Below are positions 4,025 through 53,980 of a DNA stretch of 64,000 bases, piece by piece. This DNA comes from Patescibacteria group bacterium. GTDB lineage: Bacteria; Patescibacteriota; Patescibacteriia; Patescibacteriales; WJLG01. Position 1 is the stretch's first letter; each line of letters begins with the position of its first letter. The notes beneath the pieces were generated by a model. That model had not been told where the DNA came from and did no database searches. It worked only from the letters and a program-made list of their open reading frames with translations. The DNA lies in contig JAQTUZ010000001.1 in assembly GCA_028707065.1 (NCBI GenBank), positions 98,737-162,736 of the forward strand. Direction: 5' to 3'. A program made the position numbers and the translations under genes.

Positions 4025-5659
4025 TTGTCAATGAAAATCGTTAAAAATATCTTAAAATCGTTGAATAACAGGAAAATCGCCATGCTCGGGCTGGGGGTGG
4101 AAAATTTGGCGTTGGTGAAATATTTGTTACGCCGCAGTCCCGCGGCGGAGACTGCGGCGGGGCAAGGTTTGCACATTACCGTTTGTGATCCAAAGTCGGC
4201 GGCGGAATTGGGCGACAGATATTTGGAAATCAAGCAGCTGGCGAAGAAGAATAAATTGCCGGAAATAATTCTGATGACCGGCAAGAATTATGACGCGCAT
4301 CTGGCGGATTTTGACATTATTTTCCGTTCGCCCGGCTATCCGCTGTTCAATCCGAATTTGCTCAAAGCGAAAAAGGCCGGCGTGATAATTTCCAGCCCGA
4401 TGAAATTATTTTTTGAATTGTGTCCGACGAAAAATATCATCGGCGTCACCGGCTCGAAAGGTAAAGGCACGACTTCGTCGCTGATTTATGAAATTTTAAA
4501 AAAAGCCACAACCACCCCCGGAACCACCCCCAAACCCCTCCTTCGAAAGGAGGGGAGAGTTTGGCTGGGTGGAAATATCGGCAATGCGCCGTTTGAATTT
4601 ATCGAGAAAATAAAGCCGAAGGATTTCGTGGTTTTGGAATTATCCAGTTTTCAATTGGAAGATTTGGATGTGAGTCCGCATATTGCCGTGGTCACGAATT
4701 TATTCAAAGAACATTTGGCTCCGGCCGATCCGAACAATCCGAATTATCATCGGTCAATGAAAGATTATTGGGCGGCGAAAGCGAATATTTTCTCGCACCA
4801 GCAAAAAAATGATTATTTGGTTATAAATGAAAAATTGAAAAACAAAATTCCCCTCTCGAGAGGGGTGGCCGCGCCGCGCGGACGGGGTGTGTTAAATGGC
4901 GGCACAAAAGTAATCTTTTGTTCTAGCTCTGCTTTGCCAAGTAATTTGATTGGGGCGCATAACAAAGAAAACTTGGCGGCGGCCGAGGCGGTGGCGAAAA
5001 TTTTGAAGATCAAGCCGGAAATCGTGGCGCGGGCGGTGAAAAATTTCCAGGGCTTGCCGCATCGGCTCGAATTTGTGGCTGAAATTAACGGCGTCAGATA
5101 TTTTGATGATAGCTTTGCGACCGTGCCCGATGTTTCGGTAATCGCGCTTAAAGCGGTCGGCGGAAAGTCCCCTCTCGAGAGGCCCACCTACGCTAAAGCT
5201 CCGGTAGGGCAAGGGTGGCCAACCTTAAAAGAGATAGCTTGTCCAACGAAGCTCCGCCGCGGAGCGAAGTTGGAGGGTGTGTTAAAGTTGGGTGGTAGTA
5301 AAAGCGAGATTGCTTCGCGAGGCGCTCGCAATGACAAAAATATAATATTGTTGGCCGGCGGCGCGGACAAAGGTTCGGATTTTAAAAAATTCGCCCAAGA
5401 AATAACCAAGCGCGTAAAATATTTAATTTTATTCAAAGGCAAAGGGACGGATAGATTGAAGAAAGAATTACAAATTACAAATTACAAATTTCCGATCATT
5501 GCAGTTGACACTATGAAAAAAGCTGTGGAAATTGCCAGACGAGAGGCGGAGTTGGGCGACGTTATCCTGCTTTCCACCGGTTGCGCCAGCTTCGGCTGTT
5601 TTAAAAATTATAAAGAACGAGGTGACTTTTTCAAGGAGGAGACGCTAAAAAACAAATAA
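4025..5659 (+). CDS. murD: UDP-N-acetylmuramoylalanine--D-glutamate ligase with several repeat-derived insertions
   Basis: 544 aa; Mur ligase P-loop GVTGSKGKGTT, GGNIGNAPFEF, HRLEFV, LLAGGADKGSDF; extra segments match dispersed repeats. Confidence 0.9.
   Translation: MSMKIVKNILKSLNNRKIAMLGLGVENLALVKYLLRRSPAAETAAGQGLHITVCDPKSAAELGDRYLEIKQLAKKNKLPEIILMTGKNYDAHLADFDIIFRSPGYPLFNPNLLKAKKAGVIISSPMKLFFELCPTKNIIGVTGSKGKGTTSSLIYEILKKATTTPGTTPKPLLRKEGRVWLGGNIGNAPFEFIEKIKPKDFVVLELSSFQLEDLDVSPHIAVVTNLFKEHLAPADPNNPNYHRSMKDYWAAKANIFSHQQKNDYLVINEKLKNKIPLSRGVAAPRGRGVLNGGTKVIFCSSSALPSNLIGAHNKENLAAAEAVAKILKIKPEIVARAVKNFQGLPHRLEFVAEINGVRYFDDSFATVPDVSVIALKAVGGKSPLERPTYAKAPVGQGWPTLKEIACPTKLRRGAKLEGVLKLGGSKSEIASRGARNDKNIILLAGGADKGSDFKKFAQEITKRVKYLILFKGKGTDRLKKELQITNYKFPIIAVDTMKKAVEIARREAELGDVILLSTGCASFGCFKNYKERGDFFKEETLKNK
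4511..4555 (+). repeat. family B element (with a 9-nt partial duplication), in frame in murD
   Basis: ACCACCCCCgga-ACCACCCCCAAACCCCTCCTTCGAAAGGAGGGG; peptide TTPGTTPKPLLRKEG right after the P-loop. Confidence 0.85.
4849..4896 (+). repeat. family A element, in frame in murD
   Basis: TCCCCTCTCGAGAGGGGTG-GCCGCGCCGCGCGGAC-GGGGTGTGTTAAA; peptide IPLSRGVAAPRGRGVLN. Confidence 0.85.
5168..5285 (+). repeat. long-A element (about 118 nt), in frame in murD
   Basis: Collinear with the intergenic copy at 60891-61008, about 85 percent identical by eye; shared GCTCCGCCGCGGAGC hairpin. Confidence 0.85.
5307..5339 (-). repeat. family C hairpin (ATTGC/GCAAT variant), in frame in murD
   Basis: Reverse complement reads TTTTGTCATTGCGAGCGCCTCGCGAAGCAATCT, collinear with TTTTGTCATCCTGAGCGCCGCGCGAAGGATCT at 10466. 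Confidence 0.75.
5467..5491 (+). repeat. (ATTACAA)x3 heptamer tract inside murD
   Basis: Tandem heptamers read in frame as LQITNYKF. Confidence 0.8.
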
Positions 5660-10465: not shown

Positions 10466-10623
10466 TTTTGTCATCCTGAGCGCCGCGCGAAGGATCTATT
10501 GTCCGAGAAAAATATCAAAATATCATTAAATATTAGAATCGATATGGCGATAAAAATTTTGGAAACGGAAATTTAACCTTCCTGCAATATAGATCCTTCG
10601 TCTCACGACTCAGGATGACAAAA
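10466..10623. mobile_element. MITE-like element with family C terminal inverted repeats
   Basis: TTTTGTCATCCTGAG..GAAGGATCTAT at the left, its reverse complement at the right, about 85 nt AT-rich core, no ORF. Confidence 0.65.
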
Positions 10624-10629
10624 TAATTT

Positions 10630-10723
10630 GGAGATGTGCCAGAGTGGTCGCCCGCTACGTCGGCCTTTGGCCGCGAGCGGGTCCGCGCACGCCGCCATCG
10701 GGCGGCGATGTCGCGGAAATGGG
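10630..10723 (+). pseudogene. duplicated 5' part of tRNA-Ser interrupted in the D-loop by a family E element
   Basis: GGAGATGTGCCAGAGTGGTCG [67 nt] AATGGG versus intact GGAGAGGTGCCAGAGTGGTCGAATGGG at 10980. Confidence 0.7.
10651..10717 (+). repeat. family E GC-rich double-hairpin element
   Basis: CCCGCTACGTCGGCC..GGCCGCGAGCGGGTCCGCGCA..ATGTCGCGGA; a reverse-complement copy lies at 15234-15297. Confidence 0.85.
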
Positions 10724-10979: not shown

Positions 10980-11066
10980 GGAGAGGTGCCAGAGTGGTCG
11001 AATGGGCTTGACTCGAAATCAAGTGTGTTCGCAAGAATACCGAGGGTTCGAATCCCTCCCTCTCCG
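10980..11066 (+). tRNA. tRNA-Ser (anticodon CGA)
   Basis: Hand-folded cloverleaf: acceptor GGAGAGG/CCTCTCC, anticodon arm CTTGA-CTCGAAA-TCAAG, long variable arm, T-loop TTCGAAT. Confidence 0.9.
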
Positions 11067-11108
11067 CTAGAAAATTTAAATTACATTGCTAAAATGTAAA
11101 ATAACCTT

Positions 11109-11426
11109 ATGGGTTTATTAGATTTTTTATCAGAAATTTTTGATGGAAATTCCAGTAGAGAAAATAAAACATATATTGATGAAAACGGTTATAGAAGGTT
11201 TTCAGACTCCGATAAATTAGTAAGCCGTTGGATAGTTGAGAAAAAATTAGGCAGGAGACTTAATCAGGACGAAGAGGTTCACCACAGAGACAGAAACAAG
11301 TTAAATAATCGCCCAGGCAATCTCGAAGCCCTAACTCCTGAGGAGCATAACAGAGAACATGGACTTCCAGATGATTATAATTTAGATTATGATAATGATC
11401 TTGATGATTATGACGATGACTTTTAG
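11109..11426 (+). CDS. HNH endonuclease with acidic C-terminal tail
   Basis: EEVHHRDRNKLNNRPGNLEALTPEEHNREH is an HNH motif. Confidence 0.8.
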   Translation: MGLLDFLSEIFDGNSSRENKTYIDENGYRRFSDSDKLVSRWIVEKKLGRRLNQDEEVHHRDRNKLNNRPGNLEALTPEEHNREHGLPDDYNLDYDNDLDDYDDDF

Positions 11427-11484
11427 GGCGTGATATTCCTTACTAGGGTCCCAACTTCGTCCCGCGCACCCCGCTAACTAAAAT

Positions 11485-11509
11485 AACCCGACCGCCGGGT
11501 TGTTTTTTT
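11485..11509 (+). terminator. rho-independent terminator
   Basis: AACCCG-accgc-CGGGTT followed by a T7 run. Confidence 0.7.
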
Positions 11510-11549
11510 AAAGTCGGGGAAATGCTATAATTTGGGCATAATTATAATC

Positions 11550-12587
11550 ATGGACAAATTTATGAAAGACAAATTTTTAAACATTTGTTTGATCGTCGTT
11601 ATCCTGCTTATCGCCGCGGGCGGGACTCTGTATTTTAATCGCCAAAAAATTTCCTGGCTAGAAAACAAAAATAATCCCGCGCCGAGCACGTTGGTTGGGA
11701 ATGACCGCGACGCGCATGGTTGCATCGGTTCAGCCGGATATTCCTGGTGCGAAGTCAAACAAAAATGTTTGCGCTCCTGGGAAGAGCCTTGCGTAGCGGC
11801 TACCAGTTCGAACATCGTCAAATATTTTTGCCAGGAAGGAATCTTGCGGGCGAATTATGGCACCAGTTCGGTGGGCTTGATATTAAAAAATGGCAGCACC
11901 ATGACTTTGCCGCAAACCAGATCCGGCTCGGGGATTCGTTATGAAGAAGGATCGACGGTATTGGCGAGCAAAGGCGATAACGCTTTCTTGACGCAAAAAG
12001 ATATTACAACATATACTAACTGCGTTGCCGGCAATCAAACCGTTTCCGGCGATACCGCTACTTACACCGACGCGGAAAAGACTTTTTCTTTTTCTCGCCC
12101 CAATCAATTTGTTTTGTCTGGCGGAGAAATTGGTTTTTCGCAGAGCTGGAGTTATAATTCAAGCGGCCTGGGATCGCTTTTGGCCGTCGTGGATATTCCC
12201 CGCTCGTTTATGCCGGGGACAAATTTTGGCGAAGCAAAATTTACGGTGGGCGCCAGCGGCGATCCGGCTGAAGTGAAGAATTGTTTAAAATCAAACTACG
12301 GAGAGATGGGGTCGACTACCAAGGCGACTATCGGCGATCGCAATTTCACCAAAATAAATTTTACCGATGCGGGCGCGGGAAATTATTATGACATTACCAG
12401 CTATCGCACGCTTTATAACGGACAATGCTACGCCGTTGAGAGCTTGATCCATTCTACCAATATTGATAATTATCCGCCCGAACAAGGGATCAAGCAGTTT
12501 GACCGTTTGAAAATCGGTTTGGTCCTGCAGAATATGGCGCAAAGCTTTGAATTTTTGCCCCAGACCGCGACATCTTCCGCGCAATAA
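11550..12587 (+). CDS. membrane-anchored secreted protein with an MliC-like (lysozyme inhibitor) domain
   Basis: N-terminal TM; YFCQEG...LPQTRSGSGIRYEEGSTVLASKGDNAFLTQKD...NC fits the MliC pattern; start set at ATG 11550 because TTG 11532 abuts the TGCTATAAT box. Confidence 0.6.
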   Translation: MDKFMKDKFLNICLIVVILLIAAGGTLYFNRQKISWLENKNNPAPSTLVGNDRDAHGCIGSAGYSWCEVKQKCLRSWEEPCVAATSSNIVKYFCQEGILRANYGTSSVGLILKNGSTMTLPQTRSGSGIRYEEGSTVLASKGDNAFLTQKDITTYTNCVAGNQTVSGDTATYTDAEKTFSFSRPNQFVLSGGEIGFSQSWSYNSSGLGSLLAVVDIPRSFMPGTNFGEAKFTVGASGDPAEVKNCLKSNYGEMGSTTKATIGDRNFTKINFTDAGAGNYYDITSYRTLYNGQCYAVESLIHSTNIDNYPPEQGIKQFDRLKIGLVLQNMAQSFEFLPQTATSSAQ

Positions 12588-12618
12588 TAAATATTATTAA
12601 TTTTAAAAATTTAAAAAT

Positions 12619-12780
12619 ATGTCTCACGAGATCGAAGCCAATTTTGTCGCTGATTGGTCCAATCCTGACAACGAATGTTCTCGCTGCACCGCTTTTGATC
12701 CGGAAACCGGATTCTGTTCGGAAGCGAAATGCGAAGTGCCACCCAACGCTCACTGCGATTTTTTCCAGTCAAGAGATTAG
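12619..12780 (+). CDS. possible 53-aa cysteine-rich protein (HiPIP-like Cys spacing)
   Basis: Hand translation MSHEIEANFVADWSNPDNECSRCTAFDPETGFCSEAKCEVPPNAHCDFFQSRD; below the ORF-track size cutoff; no obvious SD. Confidence 0.3.
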   Translation: MSHEIEANFVADWSNPDNECSRCTAFDPETGFCSEAKCEVPPNAHCDFFQSRD

Positions 12781-12791
12781 AATCAGTTTTT

Positions 12792-13388
12792 ATGACGAAG
12801 TATATTCTAAATTCGGGAGGATTAAGGAACAAGCCGGAAAAAGCAGTTATATTTTTCCGCGAGATAGTTAAAGGCTTGAATAAAAATCCGCATATCTTGT
12901 TGTGTTTTTTTGCCAGAGAGCGTGAATGCTGGGAAGAGAAATTCAAAAGTTACCAGCAAAACTTTGTAGAGTTAGTTGGCGGCAATATCGAGCCGATGTT
13001 TGAATTAGCTCTTCCTGATATATTTACTGAGCAGGTAAAAAATAATGACGCCATCGTTATTTACGGCGGAGATGATGACATGTTGTATTATCGGCTGCAG
13101 CAATATGATTTACCGGAAATTTGGCAAAATAAAATTATTGCTGGTAGCTCGGCCGGTTCCGATGTGTTGACTAAACATTATTGGACTTGCGATTTGCGTC
13201 AATGTGCCGATGGTTTTGGAATTTTGCCGATAAAATTTATTCCTCATTATAAGTCTGAATATGGCAGCAATGATACGCGCGGTCCGATTGATTGGAAAAA
13301 AGCTTACGAAGAGCTCGCCGAATATGGAGATAAATCCTTGCCTATTTATGCGCTGGAAGAAGGAGATTTTATTATTTTTGAAAAATAA
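12792..13388 (+). CDS. peptidase S51 (dipeptidase E)-like / class I glutamine amidotransferase-like protein
   Basis: MTKYILNSGG...IYGGDD...IAGSSAGSDVL pattern; start moved to the in-frame ATG 12792. Confidence 0.6.
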   Translation: MTKYILNSGGLRNKPEKAVIFFREIVKGLNKNPHILLCFFARERECWEEKFKSYQQNFVELVGGNIEPMFELALPDIFTEQVKNNDAIVIYGGDDDMLYYRLQQYDLPEIWQNKIIAGSSAGSDVLTKHYWTCDLRQCADGFGILPIKFIPHYKSEYGSNDTRGPIDWKKAYEELAEYGDKSLPIYALEEGDFIIFEK

Positions 13389-13393
13389 TATTT

Positions 13394-13870
13394 ATGAAAA
13401 AAAGAATTTTAATTTTAGGCGGCTGCATCTTGGTCTGTTTGTTCGTCGGATTAATCGGGTCGATTTTTACGACGCCGGCTATCGGATCTTGGTATGTATT
13501 CCTCAATAAGCCGGCGTTTAATCCGCCGGCCTGGATTTTCGCGCCGGTTTGGACATTGCTCTATATATTGATGGGCATCGCCTTGTTTTTGGTTTTTCGA
13601 AAAGTTAGGGAGAATAAATTAGCTAAAACCGGTTCAATAATTTTTGTAATTCATCTGGCGCTTAACGCATCCTGGTCGATCATTTTTTTCGGCGCCAAAA
13701 TGATCCCGCTGGCTTTTGCTAATATTGTAATTCTCTGGCTGCTAATTGTTTATTTGATCATTGTTTTTTGGCGGATTGATAGGCGAGCATCGATCCTGCT
13801 TTGGCCTTATTTGGCTTGGGTTTCCTTCGCCTCGGTATTGAATTTTTCATTAATGCTGTTAAATCGCTAA
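13394..13870 (+). CDS. tspO: TspO/MBR family tryptophan-rich sensory protein
   Basis: 158 aa, 5 TM helices; FNPPAWIFAPVWTLLYILMG and WPYLAWVSFA motifs. Confidence 0.85.
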   Translation: MKKRILILGGCILVCLFVGLIGSIFTTPAIGSWYVFLNKPAFNPPAWIFAPVWTLLYILMGIALFLVFRKVRENKLAKTGSIIFVIHLALNASWSIIFFGAKMIPLAFANIVILWLLIVYLIIVFWRIDRRASILLWPYLAWVSFASVLNFSLMLLNR

Positions 13871-14034
13871 GGGGTCTGTTGCTGAATGCCGTATTTGTCC
13901 TAAATCTTCAAATTTCGGTAAATTTTTTCAAAAATATTTTCGCCGATATTGTTATATCGCCTCAAAAATTTTTGAAAAAATTTCCTCAAAATTTGAAAAT
14001 TTATGCCTAAAAGAGCATTCAGCAATAGACCCCC
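13871..14034. repeat. long imperfect hairpin / MITE-like element
   Basis: GGGGTCTGTTGCTGAATGC at the left versus GCATTCAGCAATAGACCCC at the right (18 of 19 complementary), AT-rich partly palindromic core. Confidence 0.6.
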
Positions 14035-14100
14035 TTTTTCTTGCTTTTTTTGTCAAAGTTTTATAGTATTAAAAACAGCCCAGATCGGGTTGTTTTTATT

Positions 14101-14124
14101 CGGGGTATAGTATAGCGGTAGTAT
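14101..14124 (+). pseudogene. tRNA-Pro-like 5' fragment (acceptor plus D-arm only)
   Basis: CGGGGTA-TA-GTAT-AGCGGTA-GTAT, then hairpin CCCGCCatccGGCGGG; no anticodon arm follows. Confidence 0.6.
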
Positions 14125-14158
14125 CCCGCCATCCGGCGGGACAAGCGCGCCTAAAAAA

Positions 14159-14229
14159 CGGGCTGTAGTATAATGGTAGTACGCGTGCATGGGGTGCATG
14201 TAGCCGCGGTTCGATTCCGCGCAGCCCGA
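14159..14229 (+). tRNA. tRNA-Pro (anticodon GGG)
   Basis: Acceptor CGGGCTG/CAGCCCG, anticodon arm CGTGC-ATGGGGT-GCATG, T-arm CGCGG-TTCGATT-CCGCG. Confidence 0.85.
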
Positions 14230-14241
14230 CAGAATTACGTT

Positions 14242-14297
14242 GAAATTCTCGGAGCGAAGCGGAGACCCCGCTGGATAGCGGGGCCAGTACCCCGACA
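14242..14297 (+). pseudogene. tRNA-Pro-like 3' fragment with the T-loop replaced by a GC hairpin
   Basis: TTCTCGG [31 nt incl. CCCCGCtggataGCGGGG] CCAGTACCCCGACA versus intact TTCTGGGTTCAAATCCCAGTACCCCGACCA. Confidence 0.55.
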
Positions 14298-14346
14298 GGA
14301 TCAATTAACAATTAAAAATTAAAAATGAGGAATTATTGTTTATTGA

Positions 14347-14411
14347 GGGTAATTAGCTCAGTTGGTTATCCGCCCCAGGCGGACCCGCCTTGGGCGGGGA
14401 GCGCTACACCC
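14347..14411 (+). pseudogene. tRNA-Val-like 5' fragment with a 31-nt double hairpin in the D-loop
   Basis: GGGTAATTAGCTCAGTTGGTTA [TCCGCCccaGGCGGA CCCGCCttgGGCGGGg] AGCGCTACA, then no 3' half. Confidence 0.6.
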
Positions 14412-14447
14412 TTAAGCAAATAAAAAGTTTTTAAAACTAGAACACAG

Positions 14448-14521
14448 GGACAATTAGCTCAGTTGGTTAGAGCGCTGCATTCACATTGCAGAGGTCACTG
14501 GTTCGAGCCCAGTATTGTCCA
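14448..14521 (+). tRNA. tRNA-Val (anticodon CAC)
   Basis: Acceptor GGACAAT/ATTGTCC, anticodon arm CTGCA-TTCACAT-TGCAG, T-arm ACTGG-TTCGAGC-CCAGT. Confidence 0.9.
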
Positions 14522-14525
14522 CCGA

Positions 14526-14596
14526 GGGCCTATAGTCTAGCGGTACGACGCTACATTCGCATTGTAGAGGCGGCAGTTCGACTCTGCCTAGGTCCA
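14526..14596 (+). tRNA. tRNA-Ala (anticodon CGC)
   Basis: Acceptor GGGCCTA/TAGGTCC with a G3:U70 pair, anticodon arm CTACA-TTCGCAT-TGTAG. Confidence 0.9.
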
Positions 14597-14630
14597 CAAG
14601 AAGATTTTTTAGTCGTGAATTAATGATGAA

Positions 14631-14688
14631 GTCCTCCTTCGCGGCATTGGCGGGCTTAGCCCGCCGAAGTCCGCTTCGGCGGACGAAG
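14631..14688 (+). repeat. GC-rich three-stem element abutting the 5' end of tRNA-Gly
   Basis: Outer CCTTCG/CGAAGG, inner GGCGGGCttaGCCCGCC and GTCCGCttcgGCGGAC. Confidence 0.6.
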
Positions 14689-14761
14689 GCGGGAGTAGCT
14701 CATCTGGTAGAGCGCGACCTTCCCAAGGTTGAGGCAGCGGGTTCAAGCCCCGTCTCCCGCT
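14689..14761 (+). tRNA. tRNA-Gly (anticodon CCC)
   Basis: Acceptor GCGGGAG/CTCCCGC, anticodon arm CGACC-TTCCCAA-GGTTG. Confidence 0.9.
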
Positions 14762-14926
14762 CATAAAATTAAAAATCAGTTTTTCTGATTTTTAATTTTA
14801 TCGGACGAAAGGGGGTTGAACTAGGCAGGAGCGAGGCAAATTTTCTGCTATTTCAGTAAGTAAATTGTAAATTTTGAAGCGCAAATTAATTTATAATTTG
14901 TAATTCATAATTTATAATTCCAGTAA

Positions 14927-15008
14927 GGGCATGTGGCGAAATTGGTAGACGCACACGCTTCAGGTGCGTGCGGAGCAATCCTTGAGAGTTCGAGTCTCTC
15001 CATGCCCA
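14927..15008 (+). tRNA. tRNA-Leu (anticodon CAG)
   Basis: Acceptor GGGCATG/CATGCCC, anticodon arm CACGC-TTCAGGT-GCGTG, long variable arm. Confidence 0.9.
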
Positions 15009-15134
15009 CTACATCAATTAAAAATTAAAAATGCAAAATTAAAAATATTTTAATTGACACGCAAATATTTATATTGTAAGGTAAATTCATTAATTGAATT
15101 TTTAACTTTTCACTTTTAATTTTTAATTGATTTT

Positions 15135-15211
15135 CGGGGTATGGCCTAACTGGCTATGGCGCACGCTTCGGGTGCGTGAGGTTCTGGGTTCAAATCCCAG
15201 TACCCCGACCA
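15135..15211 (+). tRNA. tRNA-Pro (anticodon CGG), CCA encoded
   Basis: Acceptor CGGGGTA/TACCCCG, anticodon arm CACGC-TTCGGGT-GCGTG, T-arm CTGGG-TTCAAAT-CCCAG, ACCA tail. Confidence 0.9.
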
Positions 15212-15218
15212 TTTTCAC

Positions 15219-15317
15219 GAGAGTTCTGGGGTTTCCGCGACATTCCGCCATGGGCGGATGCGCGGACCCGCTCGCGGCCCCTGGCCGACGTAGCGGGCAA
15301 GTCCCAGTACCCCGACA
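15219..15317 (+). pseudogene. duplicated 3' part of tRNA-Pro(CGG) with a family E element in the T-loop
   Basis: GAGAGTTCTGGGGTT [64 nt] AAGTCCCAGTACCCCGACA, starting 7 nt after the intact tRNA. Confidence 0.7.
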
Positions 15318-17392: not shown

Positions 17393-18559
17393 ATGGACAG
17401 AAGAGAAGCGCTGGAAAAATTTGTTCCTGGCGAAAGGCGGCCTTGGGCATTGGACGTTCTTCAATTGCCGGATAGAGAAATTATTCCCCTGAAAAATAAT
17501 TTTCATGACGCGGTCATCAGGGGGATTTACTCGAATTATTTTGAAGGGCAACAAATTCTTGCCGCCAGTGGAGATTATACGTTTAAGGGGGGAAATCTGG
17601 AAATTTCTCGCGGGTTTTTGATGAATAATTGCGCACCGTTCAGCTTGAGTGATTGGCATGCCCAGCAGCTGCAATGGCAGTTAGCGCGGATAAATAAAAA
17701 AATAGAGCGTTACGCGGTTGTCGGCACTGATGCCAGTCTGGCGCAAGCTTTAAATGTTTATTTTTTGCTGGAAGATGTTGTCATCCATGTTTTCGAGCAA
17801 AATCCGGAAAGCATAAAATGCGCCAAGCAGTTAGCGGAGAGTTTAGGGTTAGGCAGTGTTTTTAATTTTCATCAAGGCGATGCCGCCGCAATATTGCCGG
17901 AGGTGGCGGAAGAAATCGGCGGGTTTGACGTGATTGATCTGCAGTTGGTTCTGCAGCATCTGCGAGGCGATTCTTTCAATAAATTTTGGGAAGGAGCGGT
18001 GGGCGCTTTAAAAACCGGCGGTTTGATAAAGATCAATGAATTAATGATCGGCACGCTCGGTTTGGTAAAGACATATGACAGTAAAGATTCTGTTTTAGCC
18101 GCGAAAAAAATTATTGAAAGTTATTTTTTCGGCGATAATGGTCCAAAAGTTCCAAGTTTTCTCAATGTCGGCTGGCATTGGCCCAAAGGCCACGCCTGGG
18201 GAAACAAAGAAAGGCTGGTTGGCGATATTCTAGCGTGCACAGGAGAAAAATTAATTCTTCGCGAAGATTTCGGGCTCTCTTTGCCGGAGAAGGAAAGTTT
18301 TTCTGGCGATGTTCTTCGCTTGACCGGCTTAAGATACGTAGTGGCAAGTTTGGCGGCGGCCATGGCTGCCAAAGCCAATTCTTTAAAGGGTGTTCAAGGC
18401 CAAGAAGAGATGGCTGGAAAGTTTGCCGGTTTAGCCGCTTGGGCTTTTAAAGAAGGCCGACGAGTGGATGAAATTCTCACCGGCCAGGAATTCGAGAAAA
18501 GATTATTCAGCGTCAATTTTTCAGAAGTTGCCGGGATAGTCTTGGAAAAAGCAGTTTGA
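17393..18559 (+). CDS. hypothetical protein, possibly a degenerate class I methyltransferase fold
   Basis: 388 aa; YAVVGTDAS...VHVFEQNP...FDVIDLQLVLQHL resembles Rossmann MTase motifs I-IV but lacks a canonical GxGxG. Confidence 0.4.
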   Translation: MDRREALEKFVPGERRPWALDVLQLPDREIIPLKNNFHDAVIRGIYSNYFEGQQILAASGDYTFKGGNLEISRGFLMNNCAPFSLSDWHAQQLQWQLARINKKIERYAVVGTDASLAQALNVYFLLEDVVIHVFEQNPESIKCAKQLAESLGLGSVFNFHQGDAAAILPEVAEEIGGFDVIDLQLVLQHLRGDSFNKFWEGAVGALKTGGLIKINELMIGTLGLVKTYDSKDSVLAAKKIIESYFFGDNGPKVPSFLNVGWHWPKGHAWGNKERLVGDILACTGEKLILREDFGLSLPEKESFSGDVLRLTGLRYVVASLAAAMAAKANSLKGVQGQEEMAGKFAGLAAWAFKEGRRVDEILTGQEFEKRLFSVNFSEVAGIVLEKAV

Positions 18560-22802: not shown

Positions 22803-22837
22803 ACAGGTTCATATAATTAAAATTAATAAATAAACCC

Positions 22838-52381: not shown

Positions 52382-53197
52382 ATGCTCGATGATTTTATGT
52401 CTTTCTTCATCGATAGCGCCGACAATCCGAAAATAAAAAATATCCTCAAATTGCAAAGGCCCCACGAGCGCAAAAAGCAGGGGGTAGTTTTGGTTGAGGG
52501 CTATAAAGAAATTCTGGCCGCACTCAAGGCCGGTTTGAATTTGGTGGAAATTTTTTATTGCGCGACTTATGGCGGAGAAAATCCTTCTTTTTTCGGCGTG
52601 GACAAAGACAAAAAATTAATCGCCAATGTTTCGCGGGAAGTTTTTGAAAAAATCACTTATCGCGAAAAGCCCGATGGCTACATCGCGATTTTTTTGGCTC
52701 GAAATTTAAAACTCTCTGATGTAAAATTAAGCGCGGCGCCGCTGGTTCTGGTGATCGAGGGCGCGGAAAAGCCCGGCAATTTCGGAGCGATCCTGCGCAC
52801 CGCTGATGCGGCCGGAGTCGATGTGGTCATAGCCAATGATCCGCAATTGGATATCTATCATCCCAACGCCATCCGCGCGAGCATTGGCGCGGCTTTTGAC
52901 AAGCAGATCGCCATCGCCACCCGCGAAGAAACGATCGCCTGGTTAGCTGAAAATAATATTACGACTTACGCCACTTCTAAGCGCGCCACCAAAGTCTATG
53001 TTGATTTTGATTATACTCAAGGCACGGCTTTTATTTTGGGCGCCGAACATGCCGGCTTAAGCGAAGAATGGAAAGATTCGGCTGACGAATTCATCACCAT
53101 CCCGATGACCGGTATCGTCGATTCGCTCAATCTTTCCGTCAGCGCCGGCATCTTGCTTTTCGAAGCTGTCCGGCAACGGAAAAAAATCCCCTCTTGA
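52382..53197 (+). CDS. SpoU/TrmH family RNA 2'-O-methyltransferase
   Basis: PGNFGAILRTADAAG, ILGAEHAGLS, IPMTGIVDSLNLSVSAGILLFE. Confidence 0.85.
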   Translation: MLDDFMSFFIDSADNPKIKNILKLQRPHERKKQGVVLVEGYKEILAALKAGLNLVEIFYCATYGGENPSFFGVDKDKKLIANVSREVFEKITYREKPDGYIAIFLARNLKLSDVKLSAAPLVLVIEGAEKPGNFGAILRTADAAGVDVVIANDPQLDIYHPNAIRASIGAAFDKQIAIATREETIAWLAENNITTYATSKRATKVYVDFDYTQGTAFILGAEHAGLSEEWKDSADEFITIPMTGIVDSLNLSVSAGILLFEAVRQRKKIPS

Positions 53198-53235
53198 GAG
53201 GGGTGGCTCGCGCCTCGCGGGACGGGGTGTGTAAA
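53187..53235 (+). repeat. family A element supplying the last codons and the stop of the TrmH-like gene
   Basis: TCCCCTCTTGAGAGGGGTG-GCTCGCGCCTCGCGGGAC-GGGGTGTGTAAA; the TGA within CTCTTGAGAGG is the stop. Confidence 0.8.
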
Positions 53236-53512: not shown

Positions 53513-53980
53513 ATGACATGGAATTATATAGCAGGATTTTTTGACGGTGAAGGATCTTTGGTCCATCACGGGAAAGGATTTAGGGTTACTATTTCCCAGA
53601 CGAATTTTGAAGTTTTGGAATCAATTAGGACATTTTCCGGAGTTGGTTATGTTATTAAGCCAAGAAAAAGAAAAGCTCACTGGAAAGATAACTGGGTGTA
53701 TTATGTGGCCCGGCAAAAGGATGTTTATTTTTTTATGATGAAGATGAAGCCATTTTTAGTTGTTAAAAGAGATCTTTTTCTTTCGGTTGAAAATAAAATT
53801 TTAAATTTTGTAAAAAGACAGAAAGAAAAAAATATTTTTCGAGAAAGAAAGGCGAACTTGGCCGTTAGATTAAGAAATGAAGGATATAGTTATCGAGAAA
53901 TAGGAAAAAGAACGAATACTGATTTTGGACAAATAAGAAGAGTTATTTTAAAGCATGGTGGTCGTAGCTCAATTGGTTAG
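53513..53980 (+). CDS. LAGLIDADG homing endonuclease (single-motif type)
   Basis: IAGFFDGEGS motif; TATAAT box 6 nt upstream of the ATG; the last 24 nt overlap tRNA-His. Confidence 0.85.
   Translation: MTWNYIAGFFDGEGSLVHHGKGFRVTISQTNFEVLESIRTFSGVGYVIKPRKRKAHWKDNWVYYVARQKDVYFFMMKMKPFLVVKRDLFLSVENKILNFVKRQKEKNIFRERKANLAVRLRNEGYSYREIGKRTNTDFGQIRRVILKHGGRSSIG

Follow-up and report, generated by a model that had tools for sequence, protein, structure and literature searches.

Short palindromic repeats such as REP, NTS/SRM, RPE and the mitochondrial double-hairpin elements (DHEs) are widespread, and both the choice of their targets and the agent that moves them are mostly obscure. The closest known system to the one described here is that of Ssn and its SRM repeat. 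Ssn is a GIY-YIG nuclease of ∼94 amino acids (aa) with a single domain, which binds its hairpin repeat (NTS/SRM) in single-stranded DNA (ssDNA) only and cuts beside it, and the ssn genes are flanked by dispersed hairpin repeats in a layout like that of an insertion sequence (IS) (Chenal et al. 2025, PMC11893778). The same paper mentions neither tRNA, nor Patescibacteria, nor a mechanism by which the repeat spreads. Here a GC-rich repeat, element E, is described from a stretch of 64,000 nucleotides (the window; contig JAQTUZ010000001.1, positions 98,737 to 162,736), which is a chromosomal piece of a Patescibacteria metagenome-assembled genome (MAG) with nine tRNA genes by ARAGORN and Rfam.

In a preliminary description of the window, E had been put forward as an insertion element aimed at tRNA loops or preferentially surviving in dead tRNA copies. 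This proposal is supported by an empty site in a relative and by an oriented YYS^WA step shared by the insertion sites. With about even confidence, E is taken to be a small non-autonomous mobile palindrome, one of a double-hairpin (DH) superfamily of Patescibacteria, that inserts in the loops of tRNA genes.

Element E, its copies and its target sites

Two copies of E lie in the window in opposite orientations (Table 1), as the preliminary description had it. The core CCCGCTACGTCGGCC-NNN-GGCCGCGAGCGGGTCCGCGCA (39 nt) matched the window at 10651-10689 (+) and 15259-15297 (-) only, and was found in none of 100 shuffles. Across its copies E measures 61-69 bases, with a GC content of 77-82% against 41-54% for the window background. 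Three blocks of 15, 21 and 10 nt are without any difference between the window copies, which differ in two places only, hairpin 1 in its 3-nt loop and hairpin 2 in its inner hairpin, where pairing is kept, just as had been claimed.

The fold of E is two abutting hairpins, with DNA folding energies of -33.5 and -29.0 kcal/mol and z-scores of -6.4 and -5.7 for the two copies; 0 of 200 shuffles folded equally well. Hairpin 1 reads CCCGCT-A-CG-T-CGGCC..GGCCG-CG-AGCGGG and the reverse complement of hairpin 2 reads TCCGCG-A-CA-T-.., so that one bulged-hairpin unit is present twice and E has two-fold inverted symmetry. Because the hairpins are a single unit in inverted orientation, the ends of E form the imperfect inverted repeat noticed earlier (7 of 10 positions, counted manually). 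Both strands fold equally well, G.T pairs are nearly absent and there is no strand bias, and E fits better as a palindrome at the level of DNA than as an RNA from one strand. Within the family ∼46 nt hardly vary; the inner hairpin is different in each copy yet always paired.

No Rfam family matched E or the tRNA fragments described below, either at gathering thresholds or at E<=1, and the phage and plasmid collections gave no match to E. Promoter and terminator scans around the two E loci of the window returned nothing useful. Split or trans-spliced tRNA halves with complementary GC-rich leaders were considered, the copies being mutually reverse-complementary, and were rejected: the fragments come from different tRNAs (Ser and Pro), intact partners stand beside both of them and relatives lack the fragments.

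Further copies were sought in stretches from public collections (loci numbered L0xx; those analysed in detail span 2-23 kb) using exact core patterns. The scans of genome_contigs and metagenome_contigs were blind to context, the patterns being 21-22 nt of E only and holding no tRNA sequence. They gave four further copies (Table 1), each with an intact tRNA of the same amino-acid type as the host fragment at 14-45 nt from E. The fragment in L012 carries two elements in two loops. Seven of the eight hits in genome_contigs and two of the five in the metagenome scan were rejected as chance matches in coding sequence that was 69-70% GC or visibly GC-rich, as was the single hit in the viral collection (L014), in GC-rich coding DNA. 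Loci with homologues of the GIY-YIG gene discussed below added two more: L016, where E is placed as in the window, and L028, which has a variant, E'. In L028-L031, E' lies in the anticodon loop of tRNA-Ser(TGA) 3' fragments, which are repeated in perfect tandem as 2 to 4.4 units of 126 nt. The array unit (L029 2320-2873; also L028, L030 and L031) is the 3' half of tRNA-Ser(TGA), a 14-nt trailer, ggtcttg and E'; the array begins within an intact tRNA, with 4.4 copies in L029 and two E' units detected in L028.

The E-type set thus numbers eight occurrences in seven genomes at seven independent sites (two in the window, then L006, L010, L012, L013, L016 and L028/29), the window Ser copy and the L016 copy being counted as one cassette. 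Their covariance model scores are 53-86 bits. The same model detected distant double hairpins in L018 (43.6 bits), L026 (32.7) and L039 (24), and no further copies of E in the window, L035, L037, L038 or L032. Copies elsewhere with no link to tRNA and no common motif had been named beforehand as the outcome that would speak against a tRNA-loop element; all six further occurrences of E or E' are in loops of truncated tRNAs.

The insertion points given by the preliminary description, GGTCG^AATGGG in the Ser D-loop and, on the complement, TTG^AACC in the Pro T-loop, were confirmed. Read in the orientation CCCGC to CGCGGA, the E junctions are GGTCG^AATGG, ACTTG^AACCC, CGTTG^AACGA, CGTTC^TAACC, TCTTG^AAAAC, CGCTC^TAACC and TCTTG^AAAAC, and those of two related elements are GGTCG^AGTGG and TTTCG^AAAAG. 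All nine E/DH sites fit 5'-YYS^WA-3', with YYS at -3 to -1 and A or T at +1, in one orientation; nine sites on the same side have a probability of ∼0.004 under random orientation by hand calculation. Given that the window contains 1674 YYSWA sites, the short motif is not sufficient to account for a restriction to tRNA. With the small Val hairpin included, the loops entered are six D-loops, three anticodon loops and one T-loop, on either strand of the tRNA gene. Since the sites share a position in the loop of a stem-loop and the motif by itself is inadequate, recognition of folded single-stranded DNA would seem to be involved. No flanking target duplication was present at any copy, and the tRNA sequence resumes exactly past each insertion.

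Smaller hairpins of the same make (TCCGCC..GGCGGA, CCCGCC..GGCGGG) are present at the three places noted in the preliminary description (Table 1). The one at 14266-14283 has a compensatory stem change in its L037 orthologue, CCCCGCC/GGCGGGG against CCCCGCT/AGCGGGG. Well-folded YCCGC..GCGGR hairpins are concentrated near intact tRNAs: 7 of 10 in L037 and L038 together lie within 150 nt of one against a background of 9% (p=4.5e-6), and 7 of 15 in the window against 3.9% (p=6.6e-7). L037 and L038 were chosen via PolA and hence are unbiased for hairpins. The 15-mer hairpin TCCGCCCAAGGCGGA is shared, without any difference, by a tRNA D-loop of L012 (2881-2895) and two non-tRNA sites of L037, at the 3' end of MurD and downstream of a dehydrogenase gene (14273-14287 and 22804-22818). 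Because of these two sites the small single hairpins are not confined to tRNA sequence.

An empty site was found by syntenic comparison of the window with L016, L037 and L038, which are roughly equidistant at 72-84% identity in shared genes. L038 has the same tRNA array, and after its tRNA-Pro(CGG) the same ttttcac-gag junction is followed by the orthologous Pro 3' fragment with an uninterrupted T-loop (gggtt^cgagtccc). As the T-loop of the L038 orthologue is intact, E must have entered a pre-existing dead Pro fragment in the lineage of the window. Judged from the aligned sequences, E is a discrete insertion without target duplication.

Table 1. Features of the window and copies of E at other loci. 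Positions are those of the window unless a locus is named; CM, covariance model; ORF, open reading frame.
Feature	Position or locus	Strand	Remarks
E copy 1	10651-10717	+	D-loop of tRNA-Ser 5' fragment; CM 82.1 bits; GIY-YIG start codon 12 nt downstream
E copy 2	15234-15297	-	solo double hairpin; T-loop of tRNA-Pro 3' fragment; CM 85.8 bits
tRNA-Ser(CGA) 5' fragment, nt 1-21, resident allele (ggagaTg)	10630-10650	+	identical to L037 intact tRNA-Ser
tRNA-Ser nt 22-27 (aatggg) beyond E	10718-10723	+	end of tRNA homology
Single-domain GIY-YIG nuclease gene, 81 aa	10730-10975	+	Pfam GIY-YIG 7.6e-14, residues 1-67
Intact tRNA-Ser(CGA), imported allele	10980-11067	+	100% identical to L016; unlike L037/L038 resident allele
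Single GC hairpin abutting tRNA-Pro 5' fragment (14100-14124)	14125-14140		L037 orthologue: loop changed
Single GC hairpin abutting tRNA-Pro 3' fragment (14284-14297)	14266-14283
tRNA-Val 5' fragment	14347-14368 plus 14399-14405		equals 5' part of L038 intact tRNA-Val(CAC)
Minimal double hairpin (TCCGCCccaGGCGGA CCCGCCttgGGCGGG) in tRNA-Val 5' fragment D-loop	14369-14398	+
Intact tRNA-Pro(CGG)	15135-15211	+	7 nt upstream of E-bearing fragment
tRNA-Pro(CGG) 3' fragment, left: variable region and T-stem 5' strand, gagagttctggggtt	15219-15233	+	ttttcac-gag junction as in L038
tRNA-Pro(CGG) 3' fragment, right: rest of T-loop, T-stem 3' strand, acceptor 3' strand	15298-15317	+	15/15 identical to nt 61-75 of tRNA-Pro CGG; 95% in a second comparison
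E in tRNA-Arg 5' fragment, D-loop	L006		MAG of Candidatus Falkowbacteria, from genome_contigs; intact tRNA-Arg(CCG) at ∼45 nt
E in tRNA-Asp 5' fragment, D-loop	L010		metagenome contig
E in tRNA-Ser 5' fragment, anticodon loop	L012		metagenome contig
E in tRNA-Val 5' fragment, D-loop	L013		metagenome contig

Displaced tRNA genes and the GIY-YIG gene

None of the tRNA fragments of the window was called as a tRNA by ARAGORN or Rfam, even at E<=1. The two Ser pieces on either side of E copy 1 together are nt 1-27 of tRNA-Ser(CGA), with 96% identity to the intact gene at 10980. In L037 and L038 a single intact tRNA-Ser of the other allele (ggagaTg...caTctcc) follows Wzy_C, and GIY-YIG ORF, fragment and E are all absent. 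Over its first 27 nt this resident gene matches the window fragment at 27 of 27 positions in L037 and with one mismatch in L038. L016 has the same arrangement as the window: E and the spacer are homologous, the ORF has 85% aa identity and the tRNA-Ser is 100% identical. Because of the resident alleles in L037 and L038 and the allele in L016, the Ser fragment is the remnant of the resident gene and the block of E, GIY-YIG and second tRNA-Ser is incoming DNA. On this comparison of alleles the Ser copy of E is then more than a plain insertion: it is the 5' module of a cassette of GIY-YIG gene and tRNA by which the resident tRNA-Ser was replaced.

The Val fragment is the GGGTAAT allele found as intact tRNA-Val(CAC) in L038, and the flanks of its small hairpin match that uninterrupted sequence; the intact tRNA-Val of the window is the GGACAAT allele, which is also in L037. 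Both the fragment and its hairpin are absent from L037. The closest homologue of the neighbouring HK gene (63%, in L035/L036) is without a tRNA array.

Several observations on the tRNA genes themselves may be set beside these. In L038 (20282-20545) an intact tRNA-Pro(CGG) is nested within a resident copy split at 35/36, in the order nt 1-35, hairpin, nt 36-43, spacer, intact gene, ttttcacga and the 3' part from nt 35/36, so that nt 36-43 are present on both sides; an inverted repeat, GAAAATGGT / ACCATTTTC, brackets the intact gene. The seven tRNAs of the cluster at 10980-15211 in the window have C34 or G34 anticodons throughout (CGA, GGG, CAC, CGC, CCC, CAG, CGG) and are dispensable isoacceptors. 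Alleles of the cluster (Ser, Val and Gly) vary between close relatives, which suggests frequent recombinational replacement.

The GIY-YIG ORF next to E copy 1 stops 4 nt ahead of the intact tRNA-Ser. There are 75 homologues in Patescibacteria with lengths of 67-133 aa, and the family profile matches the UPF0213 (1zg2, 3e-14) and SLX1 structures. The architecture of a tRNA 5' part up to a loop, a double hairpin, 4-13 nt more of the tRNA, a GIY-YIG gene and an intact tRNA recurs with other hairpins and other tRNAs in L018 (Ser, anticodon loop 35/36) and L032 (Glu, 35/36, with an unrelated hairpin pair). The double hairpin lies 7-28 nt upstream of the GIY-YIG start codon in the window and L016, L018, L032 and L039. 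Of the double hairpin, L026 keeps only hairpin 2, a truncated remnant 20 nt upstream of the ORF; the locus also has a further copy of tRNA-Ser(GCT), whose D-loop holds a double hairpin. The double hairpin of L039 stands ahead of the GIY-YIG ORF with no tRNA nearby, and the E' copies of L028 are downstream of the GIY-YIG gene. In all, a double hairpin precedes GIY-YIG in five of six other gene families, in one as a truncated remnant and in one with unrelated sequence. Since the linkage of double hairpin and ORF recurs, and in L039 even without a tRNA, the hairpin pair belongs as a module to the GIY-YIG unit and not to the tRNA.

Other nuclease ORFs also adjoin tRNA genes in the window. An HNH_3 ORF (11109-11426) comes just after tRNA-Ser, and the 3' end of a LAGLIDADG_3 ORF (53513-53980; Pfam 6.8e-5, above cut-off) overlaps the start of tRNA-His, making three nuclease families next to tRNAs in 64 kb (GIY-YIG, HNH_3 and LAGLIDADG_3).

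Explanations for the distribution of E

The structure of E, its set of copies, their tRNA-loop sites, the oriented step, the empty site, the displaced alleles and the DH-GIY-YIG linkage are direct observations, and the mechanism now outlined is built on them. In the favoured explanation the autonomous form would be a double hairpin directly ahead of an 80-aa single-domain GIY-YIG gene, usually 7-25 nt before a tRNA gene. E is inserted precisely and without target duplication, oriented on 5'-YYS^WA-3' in the single-stranded loop of a D, anticodon or T arm, presumably when replication, transcription or transformation exposes single strands. Selection would purge the insertions that hit working tRNA genes, leaving copies visible only in dead partial tRNAs. 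Such partial tRNAs are frequent here, as resident genes are repeatedly displaced by the same tRNA coming in, with or without the GIY-YIG gene, and the displaced gene leaves 5' or 3' remnants beside the new one. We infer an ssDNA substrate; the distribution would likewise come from selection and not from a targeting of dead copies. That the GIY-YIG protein is the enzyme which cuts the loops and the double hairpin is proposed tentatively, and is more doubtful than probable.

A number of points weigh against this explanation. The sample is small, eight occurrences at seven independent sites, and may leave room for E copies outside tRNA sequence. Distant relatives do break the tRNA rule, namely the double hairpin of L039 and the 15-mer in L037. 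In all of about twelve cases tRNA homology ends 4-15 nt away from the hairpin on one side and runs to the natural gene end on the other, and nearly every tRNA fragment bears a hairpin, regularities that random insertion into dead copies already present would not lead one to expect. On the enzymatic side, GIY-YIG enzymes form no covalent DNA intermediates and rejoining would need another activity. No match to the SRM motif HGTCWYN(0-2)YYVSBRHN(0-5)WNVSBRGN(0-2)RNCYNB was found in the window or in 11 of 12 loci; the sole hit, in L032, is unrelated, and the NTS positive control matched. The nearest solved relatives of the GIY-YIG protein are UPF0213 and SLX1.

These regularities and the nested tRNA-Pro(CGG) of L038 suggest that hairpin insertion and the breakpoint of replacement or duplication are mechanistically coupled, and because of these regularities two further readings were set up. 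According to one, the hairpin would inactivate a working resident tRNA and survival would need an adjacent intact copy, from a cassette, a duplication or recombination at the hairpin, so that the fragments would exist owing to the hairpin and not merely host it. At least one GC hairpin in nearly all tRNA fragments, in each case with tRNA homology ending 4-15 nt away on one side, is what this reading expects, as is an incoming gene that is always the same isoacceptor as the remnant, and the nested tRNA-Pro(CGG) of L038 has its hairpin exactly at 35/36 with nt 36-43 on both sides. We nevertheless regard it as rather unlikely, given that E copy 2 entered an existing fragment (the T-loop being intact in L038), that the two elements in two loops of the L012 fragment mean that some insertions came after gene death, and that single-copy tRNAs would demand insertion and rescue almost simultaneously. 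The other extends this to a selfish system directed against tRNA genes, made up of double hairpins and the 80-aa nuclease, and as a whole it is judged unlikely. Here an Ssn-like ssDNA nuclease would cut tRNA-gene hairpins in their single-stranded loops and its own double hairpin at the bases; the hairpin would land in a loop and kill the resident gene; the intact same tRNA of the linked cassette would become indispensable and hence fixed; and the cassette would spread by transformation and recombination anchored on conserved tRNA sequence. The distance of 4-15 nt between hairpin and breakpoint would be the stagger between two cuts, and the 8-nt duplication in L038 likewise. If true, tRNA-gene turnover in Patescibacteria would be an addiction-type drive, and a first biological role and a transposition-like activity would be assigned to the single-domain GIY-YIG family.

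Three other explanations make E a by-product or a functional part of something else. If E were the terminal module of a GIY-YIG homing cassette, solo copies would be cassettes from which the ORF has been deleted, and the double hairpin directly before the ORF in the window, L016 and five of six other families (one a truncated remnant) is in keeping with this, as are the order of fragment, E, short spacer and tRNA in L012, with the orientation of ORF-bearing loci, and the L013 spacer agttgaattaaaa, which by eye resembles the ORF 3' end ggaattgaataa. However, solo copies turn either end toward the intact tRNA, 4 against 4, their orientation being set by the local YYS^WA step; the spacers go down to 7-14 nt; and the empty site in L038 shows that the fragment which E entered had no ORF close by. 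For these reasons of orientation, target step and arrival in an ORF-less fragment, solo copies are not merely ORF-deleted cassettes, and we consider the explanation distinctly unlikely. A functional RNA kept by selection, whether a processing, stability or termination signal or a tRNA-like regulatory RNA of tRNA operons, is very improbable: E occurs in both orientations relative to tRNA genes, both its strands fold equally with almost no G.U-type pairs, the closing tRNA stems are not maintained in L016 and L032, orthologous sites in relatives are without it, and Rfam has no match. Such a role would account for the strong conserved structure, the position within or beside tRNA transcription units and 12 nt ahead of a GIY-YIG start codon, and the near invariance of 46 nt where neighbouring genes differ by 16-28% between genomes. 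Lastly, the fragments could be the attL and attR of integrase events and E a residue of the element or of the att site. Integrases classically cross over at tRNA anticodon loops and T-loops, a large serine recombinase is beside tRNA-Ser in L016, and in L010 and L037 there are 3' duplications from the T-loop with inserts of ∼110-150 nt. This is scarcely credible all the same, since no direct core repeat flanks E, D-loop and 5' fragments are unlike the remains of 3'-end integration, and the same 64-nt element is found in five tRNA types. The att scar was also rejected as a candidate for E on account of the missing flanking repeat and of the gene lists: apart from the L016 recombinase there is no integrase in those of the loci examined, L006 included, or among the window genes scanned at ∼8-18 kb.

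Insertion of a mobile palindrome into tRNA-gene loops is thus retained as the preferred explanation. For a small palindromic repeat the target of E is unusually readable (tRNA-gene loops of several tRNA types, an oriented 5-nt step and an empty site) and points to recognition of folded ssDNA. We found no description of tRNA-loop target choice for this kind of selfish repeat. The link to a bare GIY-YIG domain offers a testable candidate role for the Ssn-type ssDNA nucleases, whose function outside Neisseria is open. More generally, tRNA genes in these reduced genomes appear to be repeatedly overwritten by incoming copies, which bears on tRNA annotation, on pseudogene calls and on assembly breaks in MAGs of the Candidate Phyla Radiation (CPR), and informs on gene flow in organisms believed to rely on the natural uptake of DNA.

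Other repeats and comparison with known systems

Other repeats share the region. A second family of GC-rich hairpins is found in the window at 1572-1615, 4850-4893 and 53187-53232 (tcccctcttgagagggg tgg..hairpin..ggacggggtgtg). One copy is in frame within PolA as a 12-aa insert, SPLERGGRPLAG, absent from orthologues of 85-87% identity, and another is inside the MurD ORF; the family calls to mind the palindromic elements of Rickettsia and the REPs that have been described inside replication and repair genes. Between Wzy_C and the Ser fragment (10466-10623) lies a 158-nt inverted-repeat element with perfect 15-nt arms, TTTTGTCATCCTGAG / CTCAGGATGACAAAA, and a nested 12-nt pair, missing at this place in L016, L037 and L038. 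GC-rich inserts of ∼110-150 nt in L037 (21820-21945) and L010 (2180-2350 and 5990-6153) start with an inverted piece of T-arm, followed by a duplicate tRNA 3' end from the T-loop; the Ala duplicate in L010 includes the terminator, and the orthologous Val-Ala junction of the window has no such insert. A multi-hairpin family bracketed by cttcg..cgaag (e.g. ccttcgcggcattGGCGGGcttaGCCCGCCgaagTCCGCttcgGCGGAcgaagg) occurs at 14636-14688 in the window and at 18486-18530 and 20119-20180 in L038, where it abuts the 3' ends of tRNA-Ser and tRNA-Leu, the window copy abutting the 5' end of tRNA-Gly.

A separate, independent assembly of this strain yielded a 2951-bp contig (L015) that is identical to the window at ∼11040-13990. 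It breaks off at each of the tRNA-linked repeat regions, on one side directly after tRNA-Ser and on the other directly ahead of the tRNA array. Such repeats probably fragment short-read CPR assemblies.

The preliminary description could not place E in a described family. This stands in so far as Rfam, phage and plasmid collections hold no match, and has to be qualified in that analogues exist, namely Ssn/SRM, REP/RAYT and the mitochondrial DHEs. The DHEs of chytrid and fission yeast mitochondria are like E in being GC-rich, made of two stem-loops and set in an AT-rich genome, in their presence or absence between relatives, in cross-species identical copies that vary only in a loop and in inner hairpins that look nested (PMC10085805). 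Unlike E they belong to eukaryotic mitochondria and sit in intergenic and rRNA variable regions, and the portions of that source drawn on here report no tRNA-loop specificity (PMC10085805). The resemblance is one of form only. A link between DHEs and mobile GIY-YIG ORFs was reportedly made by Paquin et al. in 2000.

The cassette around E copy 1 may be compared with homing genes. The T4 segB gene in its tRNA cluster and the GIY-YIG ORF of Allomyces atp6 are said to be free-standing homing genes that bring a replacement for part of their target. As in the cassette, a GIY-YIG ORF is next to or inside an essential gene, a working copy is supplied and the displaced part becomes a pseudogene fragment. 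The cassette differs from them in that its protein is no more than the 80-aa catalytic domain and lacks one for DNA binding, in that the tRNA gene accompanying the ORF is whole, and in the conserved double hairpin at the junction. Position 35/36, which three of the hairpin insertions use, is also the position of group I introns in Patescibacteria tRNAs (bioRxiv 10.1101/2025.07.03.662931). E itself was rejected as a group I intron, as Intron_gpI gave no match even at E<=1 and a complete tRNA, not a 3' half, follows the insert. A DDE-type miniature inverted-repeat transposable element was likewise rejected, the terminal inverted repeat being 7/10 but target-site duplication lacking at every copy.

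IS200/IS605 elements resemble E in leaving no target duplication, in a fixed orientation 3' of a short target, in hairpin ends and in an ssDNA substrate. Their hairpins are subterminal and asymmetric with guide and cleavage sequences outside, whereas those of E, two inverted halves of one kind, span its first to its last base with no space for guide or cleavage-site spacers, and no TnpA was seen. REP and REPIN sequences with their RAYT (PMC3733652, PMC3116915) are nearer in form, being short, GC-rich, bulged, imperfect palindromes of two inverted units for which non-autonomous mobility through a single-copy, repeat-flanked nuclease gene has been proposed, and some REPs are intragenic. In contrast to E, the two REPs of a REPIN pair together (the units of E are separate hairpins), and REPs are extragenic, abundant and not restricted to tRNA loops. 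The candidate enzyme here is GIY-YIG and not HUH/Y1, no Y1 transposase (RAYT) being present among the ORFs scanned near the elements, which cover part of the window. Tagged REPs carry an unpaired GTAG or CGTC at one end of a 20-40-nt palindrome; in E, CGTC, with GTAG on the other strand, is found within hairpin 1 (CTACGTCGGCC), where it is an internal bulge region and does not tag an end.

With Ssn the likeness extends to the gene as well as the repeat. Both systems have a nuclease of ∼80-94 aa that is a GIY-YIG domain alone, and in both the gene is directly flanked by GC-rich directional hairpin repeats that are also dispersed as solo copies, in an IS-like layout. E differs in being a 61-69-nt double hairpin of low copy number, NTS having hundreds of copies. 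Recognition of hairpins in ssDNA, as by Ssn, would explain hits on the hairpin loops of tRNA genes. By analogy the E system would work like Ssn, with no claim to membership of its family (cd10448), and the most fitting description of E is a double-hairpin repeat that is linked to an Ssn-like GIY-YIG gene and has the loops of tRNA genes as its insertion niche.

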